Positions 22,253 through 37,576 of a stretch of 64,000 bases of DNA are shown here, in pieces. The translations under genes and the position numbers were made by a program. Position 1 is the first letter of the stretch, and the number at the start of each line of letters is the position of its first letter. The notes under the pieces were generated by a model. The model was not told where the DNA came from. It saw nothing but the letters and a program-made list of their open reading frames with translations, and searched no databases. Origin of the DNA: a virus (Duplodnaviria > Caudoviricetes); IMG/VR virus record IMGVR_UViG_3300021254_000020, positions 32,001 through 96,000 of that record, one strand, 5' to 3'.

Positions 22253-22355
22253 TGTTGTGACCTCCTCTTATAAAAGAGAGTAAACCCCCTAGGGTGACTA
22301 GTCCTAGGGGGTAGAAAATGTTGGACAACTCTATATAAATATGTTAGGTAGGTTT

Positions 22356-22757: not shown

Positions 22758-22961
22758 TTAGCTACCTCTACCAGATCTCTTGTTAGCCTGATGAGTAGCA
22801 GACTTGTCGATACTCTTTAGACTAGCGTTTCTAACTGATTTGTTTACTGCCTCTTTAACCAGTCCATTCATCATCATAGTATCAACATCAGAACCATGCT
22901 GTTTCCGATTTAGATTGTCAAACACGGCTTTCATATTGTACTTCTTTTTTATTCCGCCCAT
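22758..22961 (-). CDS. Small basic protein
   Basis: Start overlaps the chaperonin stop region. Confidence 0.55.
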   Translation of the reverse strand: MGGIKKKYNMKAVFDNLNRKQHGSDVDTMMMNGLVKEAVNKSVRNASLKSIDKSATHQANKRSGRGS

Positions 22962-24877
22962 AATTCTCTTACCTCCTCTATAGAGATGAGATCTAATTTA
23001 GGAATCTCTTCCTCTTCATCTACCACTTCTTCTGTAGTGCCATCGGGACGGATTACAGTCTTGGCCTCCATATCCTTATAGATATTAAACTGAGGAGTAG
23101 GAAGCAGGAACTGATTGGTATTGAAGAGTACTGTGATGATACGGGAGATGCTATCAAGAATAGCAGGCTCACTCTTAATAGAGGTTAATACTGTACCATC
23201 ATATTTTTCAGTGATGATATTGAGAGGGCCACAGTCCTCTTTCAGCATTTTATGAATAGCCTCTTTGGTTAACTCCTCATCCTCAAAGTAGGGTTCATAC
23301 AGACGTTTGGTGATAGTCATATAAGCTGTAGCAACAAGGTTGTAGGTCAAGTTCAATACCTTGCAGTATTCAGCATCTTCATCAATTAATCTTCCCTTCT
23401 CGCATGAGTTGTAGAACGCATCCATGCTGGCACGTAAGCCTTCATAACTAGCACCATATCCAACACCGTCTTGAGCAGCAGATCTGCAGTTTAATACAGC
23501 GTCTTCTACAGCATCAGTCAAGCTACGTTTGTCACTGGTACCAATACCACCAACGTAGAGGTCAACCATATTGCCCTTAATGATATGGATACGTCTCTTC
23601 AGATTACCAATCTCTACTACTTCTTGATTAGTTTCCTGCAGCTTCTCCAACTGATCTTCCAAGTTGGATACATAGTTCTTGAAGTAATCAGTATACTCAT
23701 AGTTTTCATCACGCATTTTAGACGGATTGAGAATCTTGGTCTGGAGTTTATCTACAATGATCTTCTCTGCAGAACCTGCAAAGGTACGGATATTCATTTC
23801 ATTAGGAGCCAAACCCAATGCCTGATCTTTCTTGAAAGATTCAGGATCAATGTACTTCTTGATGAATTTACCACCACTCAGCTTACAGATATCAATCAGC
23901 TTATTAGGATCAGCAGCACCAGTCTGTACGATACAGAGACCATACCTCTGTTCTGGTTTTACGTTGTTATAACTAGCAATGATCTGATCCAGATAAGAGT
24001 TTGCATCACGGCTAAAGTGAGGAGCGAAGATGATAGTTGGGTAAGGCATAGTAACCTCACCTTTAGCAATCTTATCCTTGAGAGTACCATTCCGCTGAGC
24101 AGTTTGGAGTTTGATATTGGGCTCTTCAATCTCAGTATGAATAATGAGATGGAATATATCAATCATAGTAGGAGTATCTACAGGGCAATCAAATACGTAG
24201 ATATGAGGTTGCTCAAGAGTACAAGTATGATCAGAACGGTTGATGAAGCATGGATCCAGATAACCATTATCATAGATCATGCCATCGAATCCTTTGATTA
24301 CAGTCTCTTTAGCAGAGTTACCCTGTACATCAATGAATACACCCATACCATACTGCTTATAGATATCATAGATGACTTTGGCCATCTCTTCATTACCATC
24401 AAGAGAAGTGAGAGCAATGTCATAGATATCATCCAGAGTAGTCTTTCTGCCATTCTTTTCTACGGCTTCAGAGATTTCAGCAACTACATTCTTAAAGGCT
24501 TTGATAATCTTACGTTTCTTATAACCCATCTTTTGAAGAGTAACCAATCCTTCAAAGATGATATAAGAGAGCATAACTGCACTACTAGTACCGTCTCCCA
24601 CCACTTTGAGAACCTGAGTGCAGATATCACGAATCTCTTCTTTGAGAATTGATTCGATAGGCATATCGCATTCAATATTCTTGTGGATAGTAAATCCATC
24701 CTTAGAATAGTTGCTTACTGCCATCGTTTTCCCATCACTACTCATTTTAGAATAAGCAGTATAGCCTCCAAGAGGGCCATACGTCATACCCACAGTATCT
24801 GAGAACAATTTCAGTGCTCTCAGCTGTGCTTCTCTTAATGGCTTTTCGGGGACTACGTTGTCGACGAGCTTCTTCAT
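22949..24877 (-). CDS. groEL: Phage-encoded GroEL-like chaperonin
   Basis: TYGPLG, SKDGFTI, VGDGTSSA and EDAVL...GVGYG chaperonin motifs. Confidence 0.9.
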   Translation of the reverse strand: MKKLVDNVVPEKPLREAQLRALKLFSDTVGMTYGPLGGYTAYSKMSSDGKTMAVSNYSKDGFTIHKNIECDMPIESILKEEIRDICTQVLKVVGDGTSSAVMLSYIIFEGLVTLQKMGYKKRKIIKAFKNVVAEISEAVEKNGRKTTLDDIYDIALTSLDGNEEMAKVIYDIYKQYGMGVFIDVQGNSAKETVIKGFDGMIYDNGYLDPCFINRSDHTCTLEQPHIYVFDCPVDTPTMIDIFHLIIHTEIEEPNIKLQTAQRNGTLKDKIAKGEVTMPYPTIIFAPHFSRDANSYLDQIIASYNNVKPEQRYGLCIVQTGAADPNKLIDICKLSGGKFIKKYIDPESFKKDQALGLAPNEMNIRTFAGSAEKIIVDKLQTKILNPSKMRDENYEYTDYFKNYVSNLEDQLEKLQETNQEVVEIGNLKRRIHIIKGNMVDLYVGGIGTSDKRSLTDAVEDAVLNCRSAAQDGVGYGASYEGLRASMDAFYNSCEKGRLIDEDAEYCKVLNLTYNLVATAYMTITKRLYEPYFEDEELTKEAIHKMLKEDCGPLNIITEKYDGTVLTSIKSEPAILDSISRIITVLFNTNQFLLPTPQFNIYKDMEAKTVIRPDGTTEEVVDEEEEIPKLDLISIEEVRELWAE

Positions 24878-26425: not shown

Positions 26426-26633
26426 AATGTTTACCTCCTAAACACTAAATAAAATAAAAAATATTCATGTACCTAGGTGTTAATTGATTATTCAAGTCTG
26501 ATGACCAATCAGACTTGCAATACACACTAGAGTACATTTACGGCTATAGTGGTTTCTCCCACTACATTTATATAGTATATAGTTGAGAGTTATATTAGGA
26601 TAAATTGAGGTAGACCGAAGTCTACCTCTTTTA

Positions 26634-27839
26634 TTATTGATCTTTCTGGGCTTTGTATTTATTTAGCAGTGATTTGGATTTGGTATAAGACGTACCGCCC
26701 TTGGAGAGTTCTTTACGTCTCTTATCCATTTCCTTAAAGATACCAGTCCATTGTTTAAATACCTCTTTCTCATCAGGAGAGATATTCTCATCCATGTAGT
26801 CTTTCACATACATCATTGAAGTATTGATGCTATGGAGCAAATCAGGAAGAGCATCAGGCTCTGATTTATCCAGATTCTCTTGTTTCAGCATAAATCCTAC
26901 CAAATCATTCTTTGAGATATCCAAGCAGTCTACTACATTAGTCTGAATAGGATATTTAGCATTACGCATCATATCCAACATATCGTCTTCATTGATAGTA
27001 GTATAGCCATATTCTTCTAATAGCATATCGTCATCAATTCGACTCAAACGTTTAACGAAGTTAGCCAGCTCCTGTTTTTCTATCTTACTGGGGGTAAGCT
27101 CTTGTAACCTCTCAAGAGTCTTGATAGCAGAGATACGATAACCAAGAACGTCTTTATATATACGCATAACCCAAGCTAGTGTGATATATTTATTAGTGAT
27201 TTCCTTCTTGGTATTATAGCCAAGCTTATCAATTTTATCCATAGCAGATTTGATATCCCCTCTATAATCAGTCCAAGTGATGAAGTCAGCAAAGGTATCT
27301 TCGGCTTCCTTATATACACCGAGTTCGAAAATGCTAGTGCATTTTCTCAGACTATCCCTAAAAGCATAGGAGAGGATTTTCTGATAGTGAATAACGTCAC
27401 TCAGTTTCAATACGTCATCATTGTCTATCAGATATTTATCCAAAGCATGTACTACCTCTTCAGCAGGTGCACTATTATTTGTAAGAGCTCCAATATCATG
27501 TACAATTAAAGCAGCAATCTGCTTATAGTTTAACCCCAAATAAGAACCAAACAGTTTACCATCTAATTCTAGTACATATTTATCTACCCTATACCGATTA
27601 TCTTTAGTGATAATCTGTACTACCTTTTCTGGTTCGATCTCAGGCATAGCATATAACCCAAAGAATAACTTATCCTCATTTCTAGTGAAAATAACGTTAT
27701 CACATTCTGTTTCTGGGAATAATTTATTTAATGCTGATTTGAGATCATCCAGATTGCGTTGTACTGCATTACGCATAATAGCAGATATAGCCAGTTCTAC
27801 ATCTTCATATGCATTCCTAGTTTTATTTTCAGAATTCAT
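26634..27839 (-). CDS. Putative virion (head) protein
   Basis: 401-aa ORF with LLEE/INE protease-type motifs. Confidence 0.5.
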   Translation of the reverse strand: MNSENKTRNAYEDVELAISAIMRNAVQRNLDDLKSALNKLFPETECDNVIFTRNEDKLFFGLYAMPEIEPEKVVQIITKDNRYRVDKYVLELDGKLFGSYLGLNYKQIAALIVHDIGALTNNSAPAEEVVHALDKYLIDNDDVLKLSDVIHYQKILSYAFRDSLRKCTSIFELGVYKEAEDTFADFITWTDYRGDIKSAMDKIDKLGYNTKKEITNKYITLAWVMRIYKDVLGYRISAIKTLERLQELTPSKIEKQELANFVKRLSRIDDDMLLEEYGYTTINEDDMLDMMRNAKYPIQTNVVDCLDISKNDLVGFMLKQENLDKSEPDALPDLLHSINTSMMYVKDYMDENISPDEKEVFKQWTGIFKEMDKRRKELSKGGTSYTKSKSLLNKYKAQKDQ

Positions 27840-27909
27840 TAGTAGTCCTCCTTTATTTCAACAGCTTCGTAAGAAGTTCTTATTATTAAGTCGAGAGGAT
27901 GTGATTCTA

Positions 27910-28086
27910 ATGGAAAATAAGAACCATTATGTTATTGGCCCTAGGGCTTTGAATGACTACACGGCCAACCTACCAGAAAATGATCCTAGAAAGAAACAGA
28001 AGCCATGGTGGGAGAAAGAGAAGAAGGTGGCTAGTGTTGTAGTAGCATCTCCTATGGAGAGTAAAGTAAGACCTGAGAATTTCTAA
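27910..28086 (+). CDS. 58-aa protein carrying a capsid-protein peptide
   Basis: MENKNHYVIGPRALNDYTANLPENDPRKK...; GAGG RBS; 3' part of track ORF 27607-28086. Confidence 0.7.
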   Translation: MENKNHYVIGPRALNDYTANLPENDPRKKQKPWWEKEKKVASVVVASPMESKVRPENF

Positions 28087-28196
28087 TTCATACACAAGAA
28101 CGGAGTAGAGGTACCCATCCTCTACTCCAATTCCTTGTTTTAGTGTTTGAGAGAATACTAGTTAGTATCATCTTCTATTGTCGGAAAGGAACAACA

Positions 28197-28312
28197 GTAG
28201 TCGTATGATACATAGCATAGGCTTGCCAAAGCCATCCAAATATTAAGAGATTAATGAATTCGATCAGCGGATTTCCGTTCCAGCCCCAACCATTAGCTGT
28301 ACCGCCGACTAC
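28197..28312 (-). ncRNA. Candidate structured RNA
   Basis: Terminal stem GTAGTCG/CGACTAC, GC-richer interior, late promoter ACA-N6-TAG at 28309-28320, hairpin at 28102-28128 downstream. Confidence 0.4.
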
Positions 28313-28398
28313 TATACTGTTAGTACCTATGTAAAAACCTATTTTGATAAATAACTGTGTTCAGTAAAAATGCATATTTTCAATTGTATATTATCGAG

Positions 28399-31405: not shown

Positions 31406-33430
31406 TTAGTAACCAGTGGTATCATTGCTCGGTGCCGGGTTAGACGGATCCGATACAGCATAATTAGGCTGGTGAGCCGACTTATTGTTGCCATAGACCG
31501 CATCTTTAAACTCGCCCGGAGCATTAGTCATCTGGTTCATTACGCTGACTGGAGTCTTCGGAATAGCATCGGAACCGAACTGAACGAACTGCTTAGTGGT
31601 TTCATCGAAGGTAATCTTATTAGCAGTGTAGTCGTTGAGAGCACGCGGACCGATCGGGCTGTCATTCTCAACTTCAGTCTTGAGACCAGTCGGGTTGAGG
31701 ATCTGGATACGACCCTGAACAGGTTGATAGCTCAGGAACAGGAAGCGTTCGAATGCAGTTACTGCCGGCAGCTGGTAGTTATCCGTATCACGAATTTCGT
31801 TACCAACGTACAGCTGATAATCGAAGATCTTGTACATGATACGATTCGAGTTACGCGGATTCAGAATGATAATCAGGTTGTTATCGTTACGCAGCTTGTT
31901 GGAGCTGATGAACTGGTAAACACGATTATCGCTAGTCTTAACCGTCTTCTTATAGTCGAGCATTACAGGACCAATGTTGGACGGAGTTACATAGCTGTAT
32001 TCCTTCGGCGTAATCTTGCGGATCAGTTCCGGACGTCCAAAGATGGAAACGGTTACGTTCTCATCATTGTATACCTGCAGCATGGTCGTTACAGCCGTGT
32101 CCAGGTAGTCCATGAACGTCTCATAACGCCAGGTTACATGAGAACCAAGGAAGTTATCCGGCGGTACGAAGTCGAACGTACCGGATACTTTGCTCGTGCG
32201 CGGCAGGTTCAGGAAGGAGCTGTCGAGATCTTCCAGAATCTTGTCGTCTTTATAGTTAACTAGCGTCAGTTTGATCATGCTCATCAGCTTGGTCAACTGA
32301 TTTACGTTATACATAGCCTGAATGTCACGGGTTTCTTCCGGAGAGATCGTAACAGTGATGTGCGGTGCTTCCGGGATTTCGAAGTAATCCGTACGTGCGG
32401 ACCATTTAACTTTCGGAGTCTCGTATGCAGCGCTGGAAACGTCAAGAGCAGCAGAGAGGATTACATGCGTAACCGTTGCACTCGTGCACTGGAAGGTGAA
32501 CTTGTTGTTGTGCATGGAACCAGCGAACTGGAATTCTTCAGCACGTACACCACCAACACCATCAGTCGGAACAACCATATCAACACGTTTCTGGAACGTA
32601 CGGTCATACTGACCAAATGCTGCTACGAAACGAATCGGTTCAATAGCAATAACTTTGCTCTGGAGAGAACCAGTAGCCTGATCATATACTTTGATATCAG
32701 TTACGTTACCCTGAGCATCCAGAACAGCATATTCTTCGCCTTTTACAGTCCAAACATTTTTGATGATCAGTTTGGTTACTTTAGAAGCACGAGATACGTT
32801 TGCCGTCGTGCGGTTTACAGCACCAAGCAGAGCCAATACGTCAGTAGTCTGATTTTCCGGCAGGGCAATAACAATGTCCTTACGCGGAACAGCACTCTCA
32901 ACGATGCTCTTAATCTTGTTCTGTTCCAAGAACATATCGATCTGAGTACCGTCCGGAGCTACCAACGTACGGGTTTCCATGGTCAGCGTGAACTGCGGAC
33001 CAGCTGCTACATCCTTCGGAATGGCACCTTTATCCATGACCGTAGTCATGAGCAGGTTCTTATGCATCGGGAAGGTAATACCAACAACAGGGTTGAAAGA
33101 AGACAGCGGAGCAGCTTCGCAAATACCTTGAACGTCATTTGCATACAGAGCTGCCAAGCCATCATAAGCTTCTTTCAAAGCCTGCGGATCACCCTTATAC
33201 TTCGGATCTTCAACATCGAAACTGTTTTCCACAAAGAAGTTCTTCATCTGATTATTCAGATTGGACTTCATAAAGAATTTACGCGGTTCCTCAAAGAGAT
33301 CAACGTGCTCGGTGAGACCAGCGCGAGAGATTCCAGTAAATGCCTCCGCGAGATCATGCAGTTCATTGCGTTCATAAGACTGGAGAACGTTCTGCATGGC
33401 CTGGTTTTGGCGAGAGCCTACTACTGCCAT
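31406..33430 (-). CDS. Major capsid protein precursor (probable)
   Basis: 674 aa, strongest high-expression codon bias in the window, own late promoter (33558-33569) and terminator (31332-31357), helical propeptide ending at a likely cleavage site GICE/AAP, scaffold-like gene upstream. Confidence 0.75.
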   Translation of the reverse strand: MAVVGSRQNQAMQNVLQSYERNELHDLAEAFTGISRAGLTEHVDLFEEPRKFFMKSNLNNQMKNFFVENSFDVEDPKYKGDPQALKEAYDGLAALYANDVQGICEAAPLSSFNPVVGITFPMHKNLLMTTVMDKGAIPKDVAAGPQFTLTMETRTLVAPDGTQIDMFLEQNKIKSIVESAVPRKDIVIALPENQTTDVLALLGAVNRTTANVSRASKVTKLIIKNVWTVKGEEYAVLDAQGNVTDIKVYDQATGSLQSKVIAIEPIRFVAAFGQYDRTFQKRVDMVVPTDGVGGVRAEEFQFAGSMHNNKFTFQCTSATVTHVILSAALDVSSAAYETPKVKWSARTDYFEIPEAPHITVTISPEETRDIQAMYNVNQLTKLMSMIKLTLVNYKDDKILEDLDSSFLNLPRTSKVSGTFDFVPPDNFLGSHVTWRYETFMDYLDTAVTTMLQVYNDENVTVSIFGRPELIRKITPKEYSYVTPSNIGPVMLDYKKTVKTSDNRVYQFISSNKLRNDNNLIIILNPRNSNRIMYKIFDYQLYVGNEIRDTDNYQLPAVTAFERFLFLSYQPVQGRIQILNPTGLKTEVENDSPIGPRALNDYTANKITFDETTKQFVQFGSDAIPKTPVSVMNQMTNAPGEFKDAVYGNNKSAHQPNYAVSDPSNPAPSNDTTGY

Positions 33431-33595
33431 AATATATTTCCTCCTTTTTCTCCCGCGCTGGAGCAGACTAAAACTTGCAAGTCGTCAACGCGGCTTTTTT
33501 AACTTAGATTAATCTATAAAACCTATAGATGTACACACTATAGGGCTTACTAGACCATTACGTTTATGTTGCTCAAGTCAGATGCCAATTGCTAA

Positions 33596-34396
33596 TTACT
33601 GCACGTCATAACCCCTATTAAATATAGGGAACTCCTCAGGTTCATGTTCAGGCTTGATCTTACTATTCATCTTGGCAATAGCTTGTTGTCTTTTTATTCG
33701 AGACTCGTATATATTGGTTACCAACCTAGTTATATAATTGAACCCATAAGTGAATCTCTGCAGCTCAGTCTTATTCTCCAGATATGTTCTAGCAGGATAA
33801 GCATTAACCAAACTATCTGTAATCATAGTCTTCAGATTAGTTAGCTTCTTGATAATGAAATCGATCATTGTGTCATCATAAGAGGTTCTACTAACCTTAT
33901 TGATCTTAGTAAGAGTTTCAGTAACTGCCTTAAACAATTCCTGATACCTTTGCTTCAGTTCAGTATTCTTTAATAACATCTGTTCAGGCTTAAGATCAGA
34001 GAAGATAACTTCCTCGTCTTTCTCTATCTCAGTTTCTGGGGATTGTGTTGCTGGATCTTGCATTTGGTCCATCTGATCCATAGCCTGGTTAGGATCCATC
34101 TGTTGATTTGGATCTCCTTGAGCATTAGGATCACCAGCCATTTGTTGGTTGGGATCTACTCCAGGCTGCATTCCTGCATTTGGATCCATTGGTTGCTGGT
34201 TAGGATCTGGAGCTCCTCCCAACTCAGGTCCAGGTTGTCCACCAGTAAAATCAGGAGGTGGAGTTCCTGCTCCTAGATCTTGTTGTTGGGGTGGCATAAC
34301 AGGAGCACCAGCTTGAGGAGGAGCAGCAGGCATAGGCTCCTCAGTCAATGGCTGTCCCAATAGGACTTTCTCAAATAAACTATACACTACTATCAC
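33596..34396 (-). CDS. Putative prohead scaffolding/core protein
   Basis: P/Q-rich DPNQQ repeats plus helical C-terminus, directly upstream of the capsid gene. Confidence 0.5.
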   Translation of the reverse strand: MIVVYSLFEKVLLGQPLTEEPMPAAPPQAGAPVMPPQQQDLGAGTPPPDFTGGQPGPELGGAPDPNQQPMDPNAGMQPGVDPNQQMAGDPNAQGDPNQQMDPNQAMDQMDQMQDPATQSPETEIEKDEEVIFSDLKPEQMLLKNTELKQRYQELFKAVTETLTKINKVSRTSYDDTMIDFIIKKLTNLKTMITDSLVNAYPARTYLENKTELQRFTYGFNYITRLVTNIYESRIKRQQAIAKMNSKIKPEHEPEEFPIFNRGYDVQ

Positions 34397-35863: not shown

Positions 35864-37576
35864 CTAAAATTCTGGTTTGGTGAGTTTATCCTTATCATCA
35901 GCTAATACCAGGGTTAGATTGTATAATGATTGGATACACTCCTTAGAGGTAAACATCAAGTTTTGTCCATCCAAACCGATAAAGTATTTCTTAGAGTTGA
36001 TAGTATTAAATATCTCGTCATTAGCTTCAATAGAATACAGAACCTTAGAAGATACTGTGTCACCATCGAAGTCACCACCGATTGAATCAAGACGCACGTT
36101 GTTCGGTAATGCTACATCCATAAAAATATTAGACGTATTCTTATTTACCATCTCTGGATCAATCTTTGGATAATCTGGATAGAAGGTATTATTAACCACC
36201 ATAGGAACTGTGTTAATAGTAGAGAGAACCTTTATTTTAGCAGGATACTGGTTCCAATAAGTATCTATTGGGAAACGTGTTATCAGCGTACTCTTATCTT
36301 TAGCTATTTCTTTAGCAGCCATAAAGATTAGATCACACCAAGTAAGTGGTCTTTCACTGATAGGAAGGTTAACTCCTTCTTCAGGAATACCGCCATTCTT
36401 AGTAAGAGTCTCTGCTACTTTCTCATCAGGAACGTTGAAACCCTTAAACATTAAGTAGCTCTTCTTACCTTTAATATCTTCTTCCTCAACTATTGGAGCT
36501 TCGATAGCCATGAATCTATTACTAACACCATGCATGAATCTATCTAGTTCTTCTTTGATCCGTTCATCAGAATACTGGTCTCTCCAGTCTCTAATATGAA
36601 CTCGTCTAGTAGTTTTAGCTTTAGGATCCCAAGCAAGAATTTCTCCTTCATCGCTTAAGTTATTGGCGAACCATTGTCTTATATGGAATATCATATAAGG
36701 GAAGAAGTTGGCACATAGAGCAGCTAGAGGTAACCCAATATGGTCTAAGTCAATCTCTAGATCTTCTAACTTTTCTTTTCTTAAGTCTTGTGTACAGATA
36801 ACCAAACGTGCACCCCAGTCGAATGAACGTCTCATACCAGCACGTCTAATAAGACCTAGCTTTCTAGACAAACCAGATGCTTGACTCTCTATACCAGTTT
36901 GAGGGTCTCTACCAAAAACAATGAAGTCATATACCTTAACTAGACTATCTTGAATACGTCCTCTTAATGAGCCATTCAATGATAACCCATAGTCATCGGA
37001 TTCTTTCAATGCTTTACAATCTCGAATAATAGAATTATAGATCTTATTAATAACACCTACACCTATATTCTTACCAGAAACGTCTGTATCAACGTCTCGA
37101 TACCCTGCAGGCAATACTACGAAATCATCTATAAATAGCTTATCCCTATATTTGGTTAAGAAGTCTATTCTGATATTGCGTTTACTACTAGCAGTCTTCT
37201 TGAAATCAATCGTCTTAATCAACTTCTTAAGAAAAGGTAATCCAGTCTCACCATTAGGATCAGGCTTCAGTTTACCAGTTTCTTTATCTAAAACAAACGT
37301 ATCCATCTCATAAGCACACAGCTTAACGTTACTATCTAACTTATTCCATATCTTATATGCCAGAGGATGCATAAATGTATTCCCAGCTAGATGAATATAT
37401 GCGAAAATGGTCGTTCTGTCTTCTTTAGAGACACCAAAGATTTCGTTAGATAATAACCCTTTACTTGTCGGAAGGTTAGTTCTAGCGAAAAACATTGGGT
37501 CATTTACCTCTTCTAATTCATTTACTTTAATAAAGTTATTGACGTCAAGAGGCTCTAACTCCAAGTGTTTAGTCAT
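35864..37576 (-). CDS. DNA-directed RNA polymerase beta' N-terminal/catalytic subunit (split phage RNAP, likely the virion enzyme)
   Basis: GLLSNEIFG, VLPAGYRD, TRFP and GGDFDGD (catalytic DxDGD) motifs; late promoter; co-transcribed with head genes. Confidence 0.9.
   Translation of the reverse strand: MTKHLELEPLDVNNFIKVNELEEVNDPMFFARTNLPTSKGLLSNEIFGVSKEDRTTIFAYIHLAGNTFMHPLAYKIWNKLDSNVKLCAYEMDTFVLDKETGKLKPDPNGETGLPFLKKLIKTIDFKKTASSKRNIRIDFLTKYRDKLFIDDFVVLPAGYRDVDTDVSGKNIGVGVINKIYNSIIRDCKALKESDDYGLSLNGSLRGRIQDSLVKVYDFIVFGRDPQTGIESQASGLSRKLGLIRRAGMRRSFDWGARLVICTQDLRKEKLEDLEIDLDHIGLPLAALCANFFPYMIFHIRQWFANNLSDEGEILAWDPKAKTTRRVHIRDWRDQYSDERIKEELDRFMHGVSNRFMAIEAPIVEEEDIKGKKSYLMFKGFNVPDEKVAETLTKNGGIPEEGVNLPISERPLTWCDLIFMAAKEIAKDKSTLITRFPIDTYWNQYPAKIKVLSTINTVPMVVNNTFYPDYPKIDPEMVNKNTSNIFMDVALPNNVRLDSIGGDFDGDTVSSKVLYSIEANDEIFNTINSKKYFIGLDGQNLMFTSKECIQSLYNLTLVLADDKDKLTKPEF

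Follow-up and report, generated by a model that had tools for sequence, protein, structure and literature searches.

Small head proteins that repeat part of a larger head protein are known from the protease-scaffold pairs of the lambda gpC/gpNu3 type, in which the small protein shares the C-terminal module of the larger one, so that both can address one partner during assembly. Where capsid proteins have extended arms, these usually bind neighboring subunits, and the C terminus of HK97-fold shell proteins, such as the P22 coat protein and the encapsulins, is found on the outer surface. We know of no described head accessory protein that is a separately encoded paralog of a piece of the capsid protein, and neither the family libraries nor a literature search returned a described case of a separately encoded capsid-arm paralog. 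Here, we present a small ORF that we hold with high confidence to be a genuine coding gene whose product is an old, free-standing paralog of the C-terminal arm of the phage's own capsid protein. As in the lambda pair, a larger head protein has its C-terminal module in common with the small one, as both alignments and profiles bring out. However, the lambda pair arises from an internal in-frame start and shares identical sequence, whereas the small protein described here is encoded by a gene of its own, 3.3 kb away on the opposite strand and preceded by a separate ribosome-binding site, with 3 of 12 codons in common in the best-matching stretch and about 35% identity. The larger partner also differs, since here it is the capsid protein itself.

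The stretch of DNA that we analyzed, called the window, covers 64,000 nucleotides (positions 32001-96000 of a 266,420-bp virus record). A sequence-only reading of the window had drawn attention to a 12-residue peptide present in two ORFs, and both occurrences are exact. The peptide, IGPRALNDYTAN, is encoded at 27934-27969 (+), inside a small ORF of 58 aa, and again at 31619-31654 (-), as residues 593-604 of the 674-aa capsid ORF (31406-33430). The same reading had noted that the two copies use different codons, quoting the two 36-nt stretches correctly: they agree at 25 of 36 bases and have just 3 of the 12 codons in common. We estimate the chance of such a 12-residue identity within 64 kb to be of the order of 1e-9, which is negligible, and a search of the whole 266-kb genome with the small protein found the capsid tail as the sole other match (E 3.3e-4). 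Over the entire alignment of the small ORF with the capsid tail, synonymous differences have reached saturation (pS 0.91), and hence the copy is not recent. Together with dN/dS values of 0.03 to 0.31 between orthologs of the small gene, this upholds the proposal that the peptide is kept by selection and is not a recent copy.

The small ORF has the expected features of a gene. It starts at an ATG at 27910 and ends with a stop at 28084-28086 on the plus strand. A ribosome-binding site, GAGAGGA, can be read in the sequence at 27893-27899, 10 nt ahead of the ATG, and every homolog of the small protein has a GGAGG-type site at similar spacing. A 10-bp G+C-rich hairpin (28102-28128; -25.1 kcal/mol, z -6.5) lies 16 nt past the stop and resembles a terminator acting on both strands; comparable hairpins follow the stop in most homologs. 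The reading frame is also conserved in relatives, a point on which the earlier suggestion had been made dependent: homologs of 43-67 residues occur in 58 related loci that we fetched, and a profile search of 1.84 billion representatives gave 33 small-protein representatives at 50% identity, including the cluster of the window. The closest comparison, between the window and locus L027, shows 19 synonymous vs 4 nonsynonymous changes (dN/dS 0.03). Small proteins and capsid tails all have N15, D16, and Y17, and nearly all have R12, A19, and N20. The small protein matches no Pfam or PHROG family, and searches of 50,697 deposited phage genomes with the protein (tblastn) and with the locus (blastn) gave no match. 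A longer reading of the ORF, of 159 aa from a GTG at 27607, was rejected, as it overlaps the 401-aa gene on the opposite strand, is not conserved, and has its frame closed by stops in relatives. We also set aside a 301-aa member of one of the small-protein clusters (P0189), which is an unrelated, misclustered protein.

The 674-aa ORF (31406-33430, minus strand) encodes the major capsid protein, with an HK97 fold, as identified by PHROG, PDB profile, and Foldseek comparisons. It matches phrog_20655, "major head protein," with an E value of 1.6e-14 over residues 352-582, and its family profile matches the capsid protein of the Staphylococcus jumbo phage S6 (PDB 7x30) with an E value of 6e-16, up to residue 577. 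The AlphaFold2 model of the capsid protein (mean pLDDT 64) has 7x30 as its best Foldseek match (E 4e-20), followed by chains of phiKp24, phiKZ, P1, and HK97. Phage S6 has the closest solved capsid by sequence profile and by fold, even if the two proteins are only about 18-20% identical. The closest deposited capsids are those of three Staphylococcus jumbo phages, at 20% identity, with none nearer among deposited phage genomes. Metagenomes are richer, with 727 capsid homologs, many of them on contigs of 250-340 kb. The PHROG and S6 alignments both stop at residues 577-582, and the S6 protein ends five residues past the aligned end. The S6 capsid stops where the fold ends and has no arm, whereas about 87 residues extend past the fold in the capsid studied here. 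The end of the alignments and low pLDDT values (below 50 at residues 588-603 and 623-674) delimit a C-terminal arm of residues 588-674 (31409-31669, minus strand), in which the shared peptide forms the first block. The blocks of the arm are conserved among 75 distinct capsid tails. At the other end of the protein, residue 105 is an invariant Glu in a G-[IL]-x-E element (33100-33130, minus strand), a likely maturation cleavage site; the S6 capsid chains likewise lack some 80-100 N-terminal residues. Just upstream of the capsid gene, a 266-aa protein (33596-34396, minus strand) with a repeat-like N-terminal half rich in Pro, Gln, Asp, and Asn and a helical-looking second half has a scaffold-like appearance.

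Judged by its genes, the phage is a distant uncultivated relative of the AR9/S6/phiKZ-type jumbo phages. This placement follows from the capsid match, from an RNA polymerase beta-like gene (ORF 35864-37576; phrog_2986, "RNA polymerase beta subunit," E 7e-70), and from a GroEL/Cpn60-type chaperonin of 642 aa (22949-24877, minus strand; PF00118, E 1.9e-15; phrog_5725, E 1.8e-50). The polymerase-like and chaperonin genes are a likeness to AR9/PBS1-like jumbo phages, and the assignment to the class with a multisubunit RNA polymerase is based on a genome of 266,420 bp (>200 kb) and on the beta-subunit match.

The similarity between the small protein and the capsid arm, which had been described as limited to 12 residues, turned out to be much longer. 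Joint alignments of small proteins and capsid tails show about 55 shared residues, in which four elements occur in identical order. The R-A-[LM]-N-D-Y-x-A-N block comes first, then an aromatic-x-E element, then a basic residue with a short strand-like hydrophobic run after it, and last an [SA]-P-x-[ED] element. The positions conserved at 60% or more in both sets are R, A, N, D, Y, A, N, K/R, and S/A-P. When the first block was removed, a profile-profile comparison still paired the last two elements (P 0.0016, a single comparison). Given these ordered blocks and the profile alignment beyond the first of them, the small protein is a paralog of roughly residues 588-645 of the capsid protein. The arm has a further conserved block near its C terminus that most small proteins lack, and remnants of this last block persist in the small proteins of L043, L018, and L001. 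A profile search over 1.84 billion representatives found the module only in capsid C-terminal tails or fragments and in these small proteins, and its comparison with the sequences of the PDB gave matches at chance level only. The idea of a capsid-motif mimic has thus been partly retained: the homology to the capsid is real, but the resemblance is neither short nor convergent, as it stems from an old paralog of the whole arm that includes several blocks.

We also compared how the two copies vary among relatives. Checking the covariation of the two motifs, as the sequence-only reading had suggested, gave a divided answer, since the core N-D-Y and A-N is invariant in both copies, whereas each copy has drifted on its own at the variable positions. 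Strict covariation is ruled out by three genomes (L016, L017, and L018) that have NDW in the capsid vs NDY in the small protein, and in which the residue after the Y differs as well. On the other hand, small proteins and arms from the same genome are more alike than permuted pairs (p 0.005 for identities and p 0.003 for BLOSUM scores, 12 clades), whereas a count of rare states shared within a genome was not significant (p 0.06, 13 clades); these tests cover 12-13 genome pairs and short alignments. Some of the similarities within a genome can be pinpointed. In L003 the arm and the small protein share a V-S ahead of the motif, and in L069 an H-I pair. The last block contains a shared four-residue string in L018 and is preceded by four identical residues in L005, and in L016 five residues are identical. 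This weak similarity may be the result of gene conversion at the level of clades or of a shared partner. We read the data as a common motif set under purifying selection and not as tight coevolution; gene conversion or drift driven by a partner would be occasional at most.

The small gene has a stable place. In all readable neighborhoods except that of L071, which is a small contig, it lies between the capsid gene and a conserved gene of about 400 aa. In the window, the latter encodes 401 aa (26634-27839, minus strand), is divergent from the small ORF, and recurs in the gene tables of L016, L017, L018, L069, and L072. It gave no lead in Pfam or PHROG, and in the ESM Atlas it gave unnamed viral clusters below a useful score. 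The small gene is usually antisense to both neighbors, although its orientation is flipped in L006 and L069, and the number of variable genes inserted between it and the capsid gene ranges from zero to several. The conserved gene string runs from the capsid gene to the small gene, the 400-aa gene, genes of 270 aa and 215 aa, and the Cpn60 gene, and in every relative whose flank is long enough, the chaperonin is found a few genes past the small ORF. The arm itself is variable in length. The capsid of L011 ends at the fold, those of L012 and L013 carry about 14 residues more, and that of L009 has an arm of 46 residues whose first block is degenerate; the L009 genome, judged to be 99% complete, lacks the small gene. 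The main clade has arms of 80-110 residues with all blocks, plus the small gene. From the loci compared, the long arm is confined to this clade of uncultivated AR9/S6-like jumbo phages. One of its members, L019, has the long arm without a small gene at the usual place, and hence the gene is either dispensable there or has moved.

The two copies of the module differ in their charge. Both are predicted to be unstructured alone, and AlphaFold2 gave no secondary structure for the small protein (pTM 0.24). The small proteins have a mean net charge of +3.7 and a pI of 8.9 (net charge +3 and pI 9.4 in the window; range of net charge, -2 to +9), vs -3.3 and 5.2 for the capsid arms. Most of the difference is due to a Lys-rich linker in the small proteins, which replaces a short predicted hairpin of the arm.

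The regions upstream of the two genes suggest when they may be expressed. The consensus of AR9 late promoters is AACA-(6N)-TA/G (PMC5312081). The window has an AACA-N6-TA motif at 27860-27871 (+), whose last base is 39 nt ahead of the ATG of the small ORF, and another at 33559-33570 (-), 129-140 nt ahead of the ATG of the capsid gene; both are candidate late promoters, the former for the non-virion RNA polymerase. The motif ahead of the small ORF is kept at the same place in L027, L016, and L028, and with one mismatch in L029, and is approximate or different in other clades. Ahead of the capsid gene, a motif of the same form occurs at a similar distance in L017, L018, and L007. Across the genome, AACA-N6-TA is found upstream of genes 39 times in the sense and 16 times in the antisense orientation (22.5 expected), and in the window overall it is not enriched (78 vs 90 expected). 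The most enriched upstream word is of another kind: TATACTAT, which is early-class-like, is found in 27 upstream windows vs 6 expected, and together the A+T-rich words TATACTAT/ATACTATA are found in 27-28 such windows vs 6-7 expected. TATACTAT is absent ahead of the small ORF. The AACA-N6-TA motif and the TATACTAT/ATACTATA words are probably the late and early promoter classes of AR9-like phages. Late coexpression of the small protein with the capsid protein is likely, because the same class of motif precedes both genes and the early-type word is absent, a timing that we deduce only from a short motif and from the analogy with AR9. A sigma-70-like match that overlaps the AACA motif was discarded, being no better than those in shuffled sequence. 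Further AACA-N6-TA(AT) examples occur in the window at 26470-26481 (-) and 22334-22345 (-). Another match, at 28310-28321 (-) in the gap after the small ORF, points back across the small ORF to the 401-aa gene. If used, it would give a transcript antisense through the small ORF, unless this were stopped by the hairpin at 28102-28128.

What could be the function of a free capsid arm? Purifying selection has preserved one set of short motifs in both unstructured copies, which suggests that the arm and the small protein dock on the same receptor surface. This surface could belong to the capsid lattice, where either the capsid protein or a head accessory protein would offer a site normally taken up by the arm of a neighboring subunit. 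The free peptide, probably made late like the capsid protein, could then serve as an arm supplied in trans, capping or filling the sites that have no partner arm, or blocking the site until assembly is ready. The Lys-rich linker, which is missing from the acidic arm, might give it a second contact, with DNA or with an acidic surface. We consider a trans-supplied arm that occupies or blocks the arm docking site during head assembly to be the most economical reading, since arms generally bind neighbors and the C terminus of the HK97 fold lies outside, and we put it forward tentatively, as a possibility that could well prove wrong.

Such a role would have relatives among known capsid extensions. 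The HK97 N-arm and E-loop and the C-terminal arm of polyomavirus VP1 are comparable to the present arm, an unstructured extension of the capsid with conserved motifs that is most simply read as a tie between subunits. The free copy could also bind in the manner of a minimal cement peptide, by analogy with T4 Soc, lambda gpD, and the Dec protein of phage L. However, the known decoration proteins are folded domains unrelated to the capsid, whereas the small protein is a paralog of the capsid and has no predicted fold (pTM 0.24), no PHROG or Pfam family, and no sequence relative in the PDB.

Several observations speak against the trans-supplied arm. It is not evident why a free arm would be needed, because an icosahedral lattice made of a single protein gives every site a partner arm. 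The whole genome encodes no capsid paralog without the tail that could be a candidate for the vertex protein and create sites lacking an arm, and this absence also counts against it. The model of the capsid monomer gives no confident docking of the arm onto the capsid body. Finally, L019 has the long arm without the small gene at its usual place. Co-folding of capsid residues 100-587 with the small protein, each supplied with an alignment and run without controls, scored 0.12 vs a mark of 0.32, which weighs on neither side of the question of binding. If the free peptide does bind the site of the arm, it would be a gene-encoded means to complete, time, or block contacts in the capsid lattice. 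Whatever the partner, the gene defines a widespread unannotated microprotein family (about 33 clusters at 50% identity) carried by a large group of uncultivated jumbo phages, mostly of 250-340 kb. The invariant N-D-Y, in its R-A-x-N-D-Y-x-A-N context, provides a short motif usable for mutation or as bait for the partner.

The partner of the arm could instead lie outside the lattice. The arm could be a tag that directs the capsid protein to the phage Cpn60-type chaperonin, whose gene is five genes away, or to the prohead protease, in which case the small protein could be a regulator, a cofactor, or a substrate that is processed to an internal peptide via the same tag. The place of the chaperonin in the conserved gene string fits this, and so does the [SA]-P-x-[ED] element conserved in both copies, since acidic residues at cleavage sites are typical of T4-type prohead proteases. 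We nevertheless consider this unlikely. L019 retains the chaperonin without a small gene at the usual place, and both the S6 capsid, which has no long arm, and AR9, which is reported to encode a chaperonin, may be raised against it. Moreover, the likely N-terminal maturation site of the capsid protein is G-[IL]-x-E (E105), whereas the arm element has a Pro in place of the Ile/Leu at the equivalent position. Comparison with this probable N-terminal site does not support the [SA]-P-x-E block as a site of the prohead protease.

A host protein is another conceivable partner. The free copy could be a decoy or competitive inhibitor that soaks up a host sensor or protease recognizing the exposed capsid arm. 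It might do so in the way lambda CIII shields CII from FtsH, or as a nonactivating ligand of a defense protein that senses capsids. There are precedents for the components of this idea. In the T4 Gol peptide with Lit and in the capsid with CapRel, a short capsid-derived peptide is the ligand of another protein, as may be the case here, and lambda CIII is a phage peptide of about 55 residues that competes with a larger phage protein for one site. Capsid proteins trigger several defense systems, among them Lit/Gol, CapRel, and PifA. The Pfam and PHROG scans found no similarity to the Gol/Lit, CapRel, or CIII proteins, and a literature search found no precedent for a capsid-peptide decoy. The organization of the locus is compatible with a decoy, as the gene is an independent unit with a promoter-like motif and a terminator, placed antisense between gene blocks like the "moron" genes, and appears to be dispensable in at least one relative (L019, where it is absent from its usual place). 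The small protein has diverged from the arm in charge while retaining the motifs, and, as a second case in this genome, another exposed capsid segment (residues 130-175) has recently been copied into an unrelated protein. Yet one would expect a sensor to be activated, not silenced, by a faithful copy of its trigger peptide. The family is also stable at one capsid-adjacent locus across very diverged phages, unlike the variable cargo of antidefense genes, and it matches no described family in PHROGs or Pfam. On balance, a decoy seems quite improbable to us. We regard as a little less credible still the specific version in which the free arm titrates a host sensor or protease of nascent capsid arms and the copy of residues 130-175 may serve likewise. 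If the partner did prove to be a host protein, this would be a new type of counterdefense, and a true decoy would make it a conserved capsid-derived counterdefense module in a large clade of jumbo phages.

The basic character of the small proteins raises the possibility of a role inside the head, where a packaged peptide could be anchored to the shell by its arm-like motifs and neutralize or organize the DNA with its Lys-rich linker. T4-type phages are known to have small basic peptides inside the head, and the small proteins are consistently basic, unlike the arm, and predicted to be unstructured. Nevertheless, an arm-binding site inside the shell is not expected, because the C terminus of the HK97 fold normally points outwards, and not every member of the family is basic (net charge from -2 to +9). 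We find an internal, DNA-facing peptide very doubtful. Finally, a functionless remnant of a duplicated capsid-gene 3' end, left for example by the insertion of a mobile element, is barely credible, even if capsid-gene fragments have been copied in this lineage (the 247-aa protein and the BpuJI-like frame on contig L073 presented below), given the strong purifying selection (dN/dS 0.03-0.31), the conserved reading frame, start, ribosome-binding site, and terminator, and the retention of the gene across dozens of diverged lineages.

Other fragments of the capsid gene were found in unrelated contexts. A 247-aa protein encoded in the same genome, outside the window (G000:C1:170075-170839, minus strand; L075:1375-2139), includes a 46-residue segment that is 57% identical to residues 130-175 of the capsid protein, with 89 of 138 bases shared. 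In the capsid model, these residues cover the last part of the N-arm and the E-loop hairpin. The 247-aa protein has two conserved parts, an N-terminal domain that contains a Cys/His-rich run and an acidic motif at the C terminus, and the insert is located in the variable linker that separates them. The insert is present in this phage and in a 94% identical relative only, and the five other members of the family lack it. The segment is a second, recent copy of a capsid fragment. A further case comes from a 1.6-kb ENA contig (L073:1-1625), where a BpuJI_N-like restriction-enzyme domain and a complete C-terminal arm of the capsid protein are fused in one frame of 225 aa. Upstream of this frame is the 3' end of a gene for a cytosine-5 DNA methyltransferase, and a homolog of the small protein lies downstream in the same orientation. 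This contig is either a restriction-modification cassette inserted at the junction of the capsid body and arm or a chimeric assembly.
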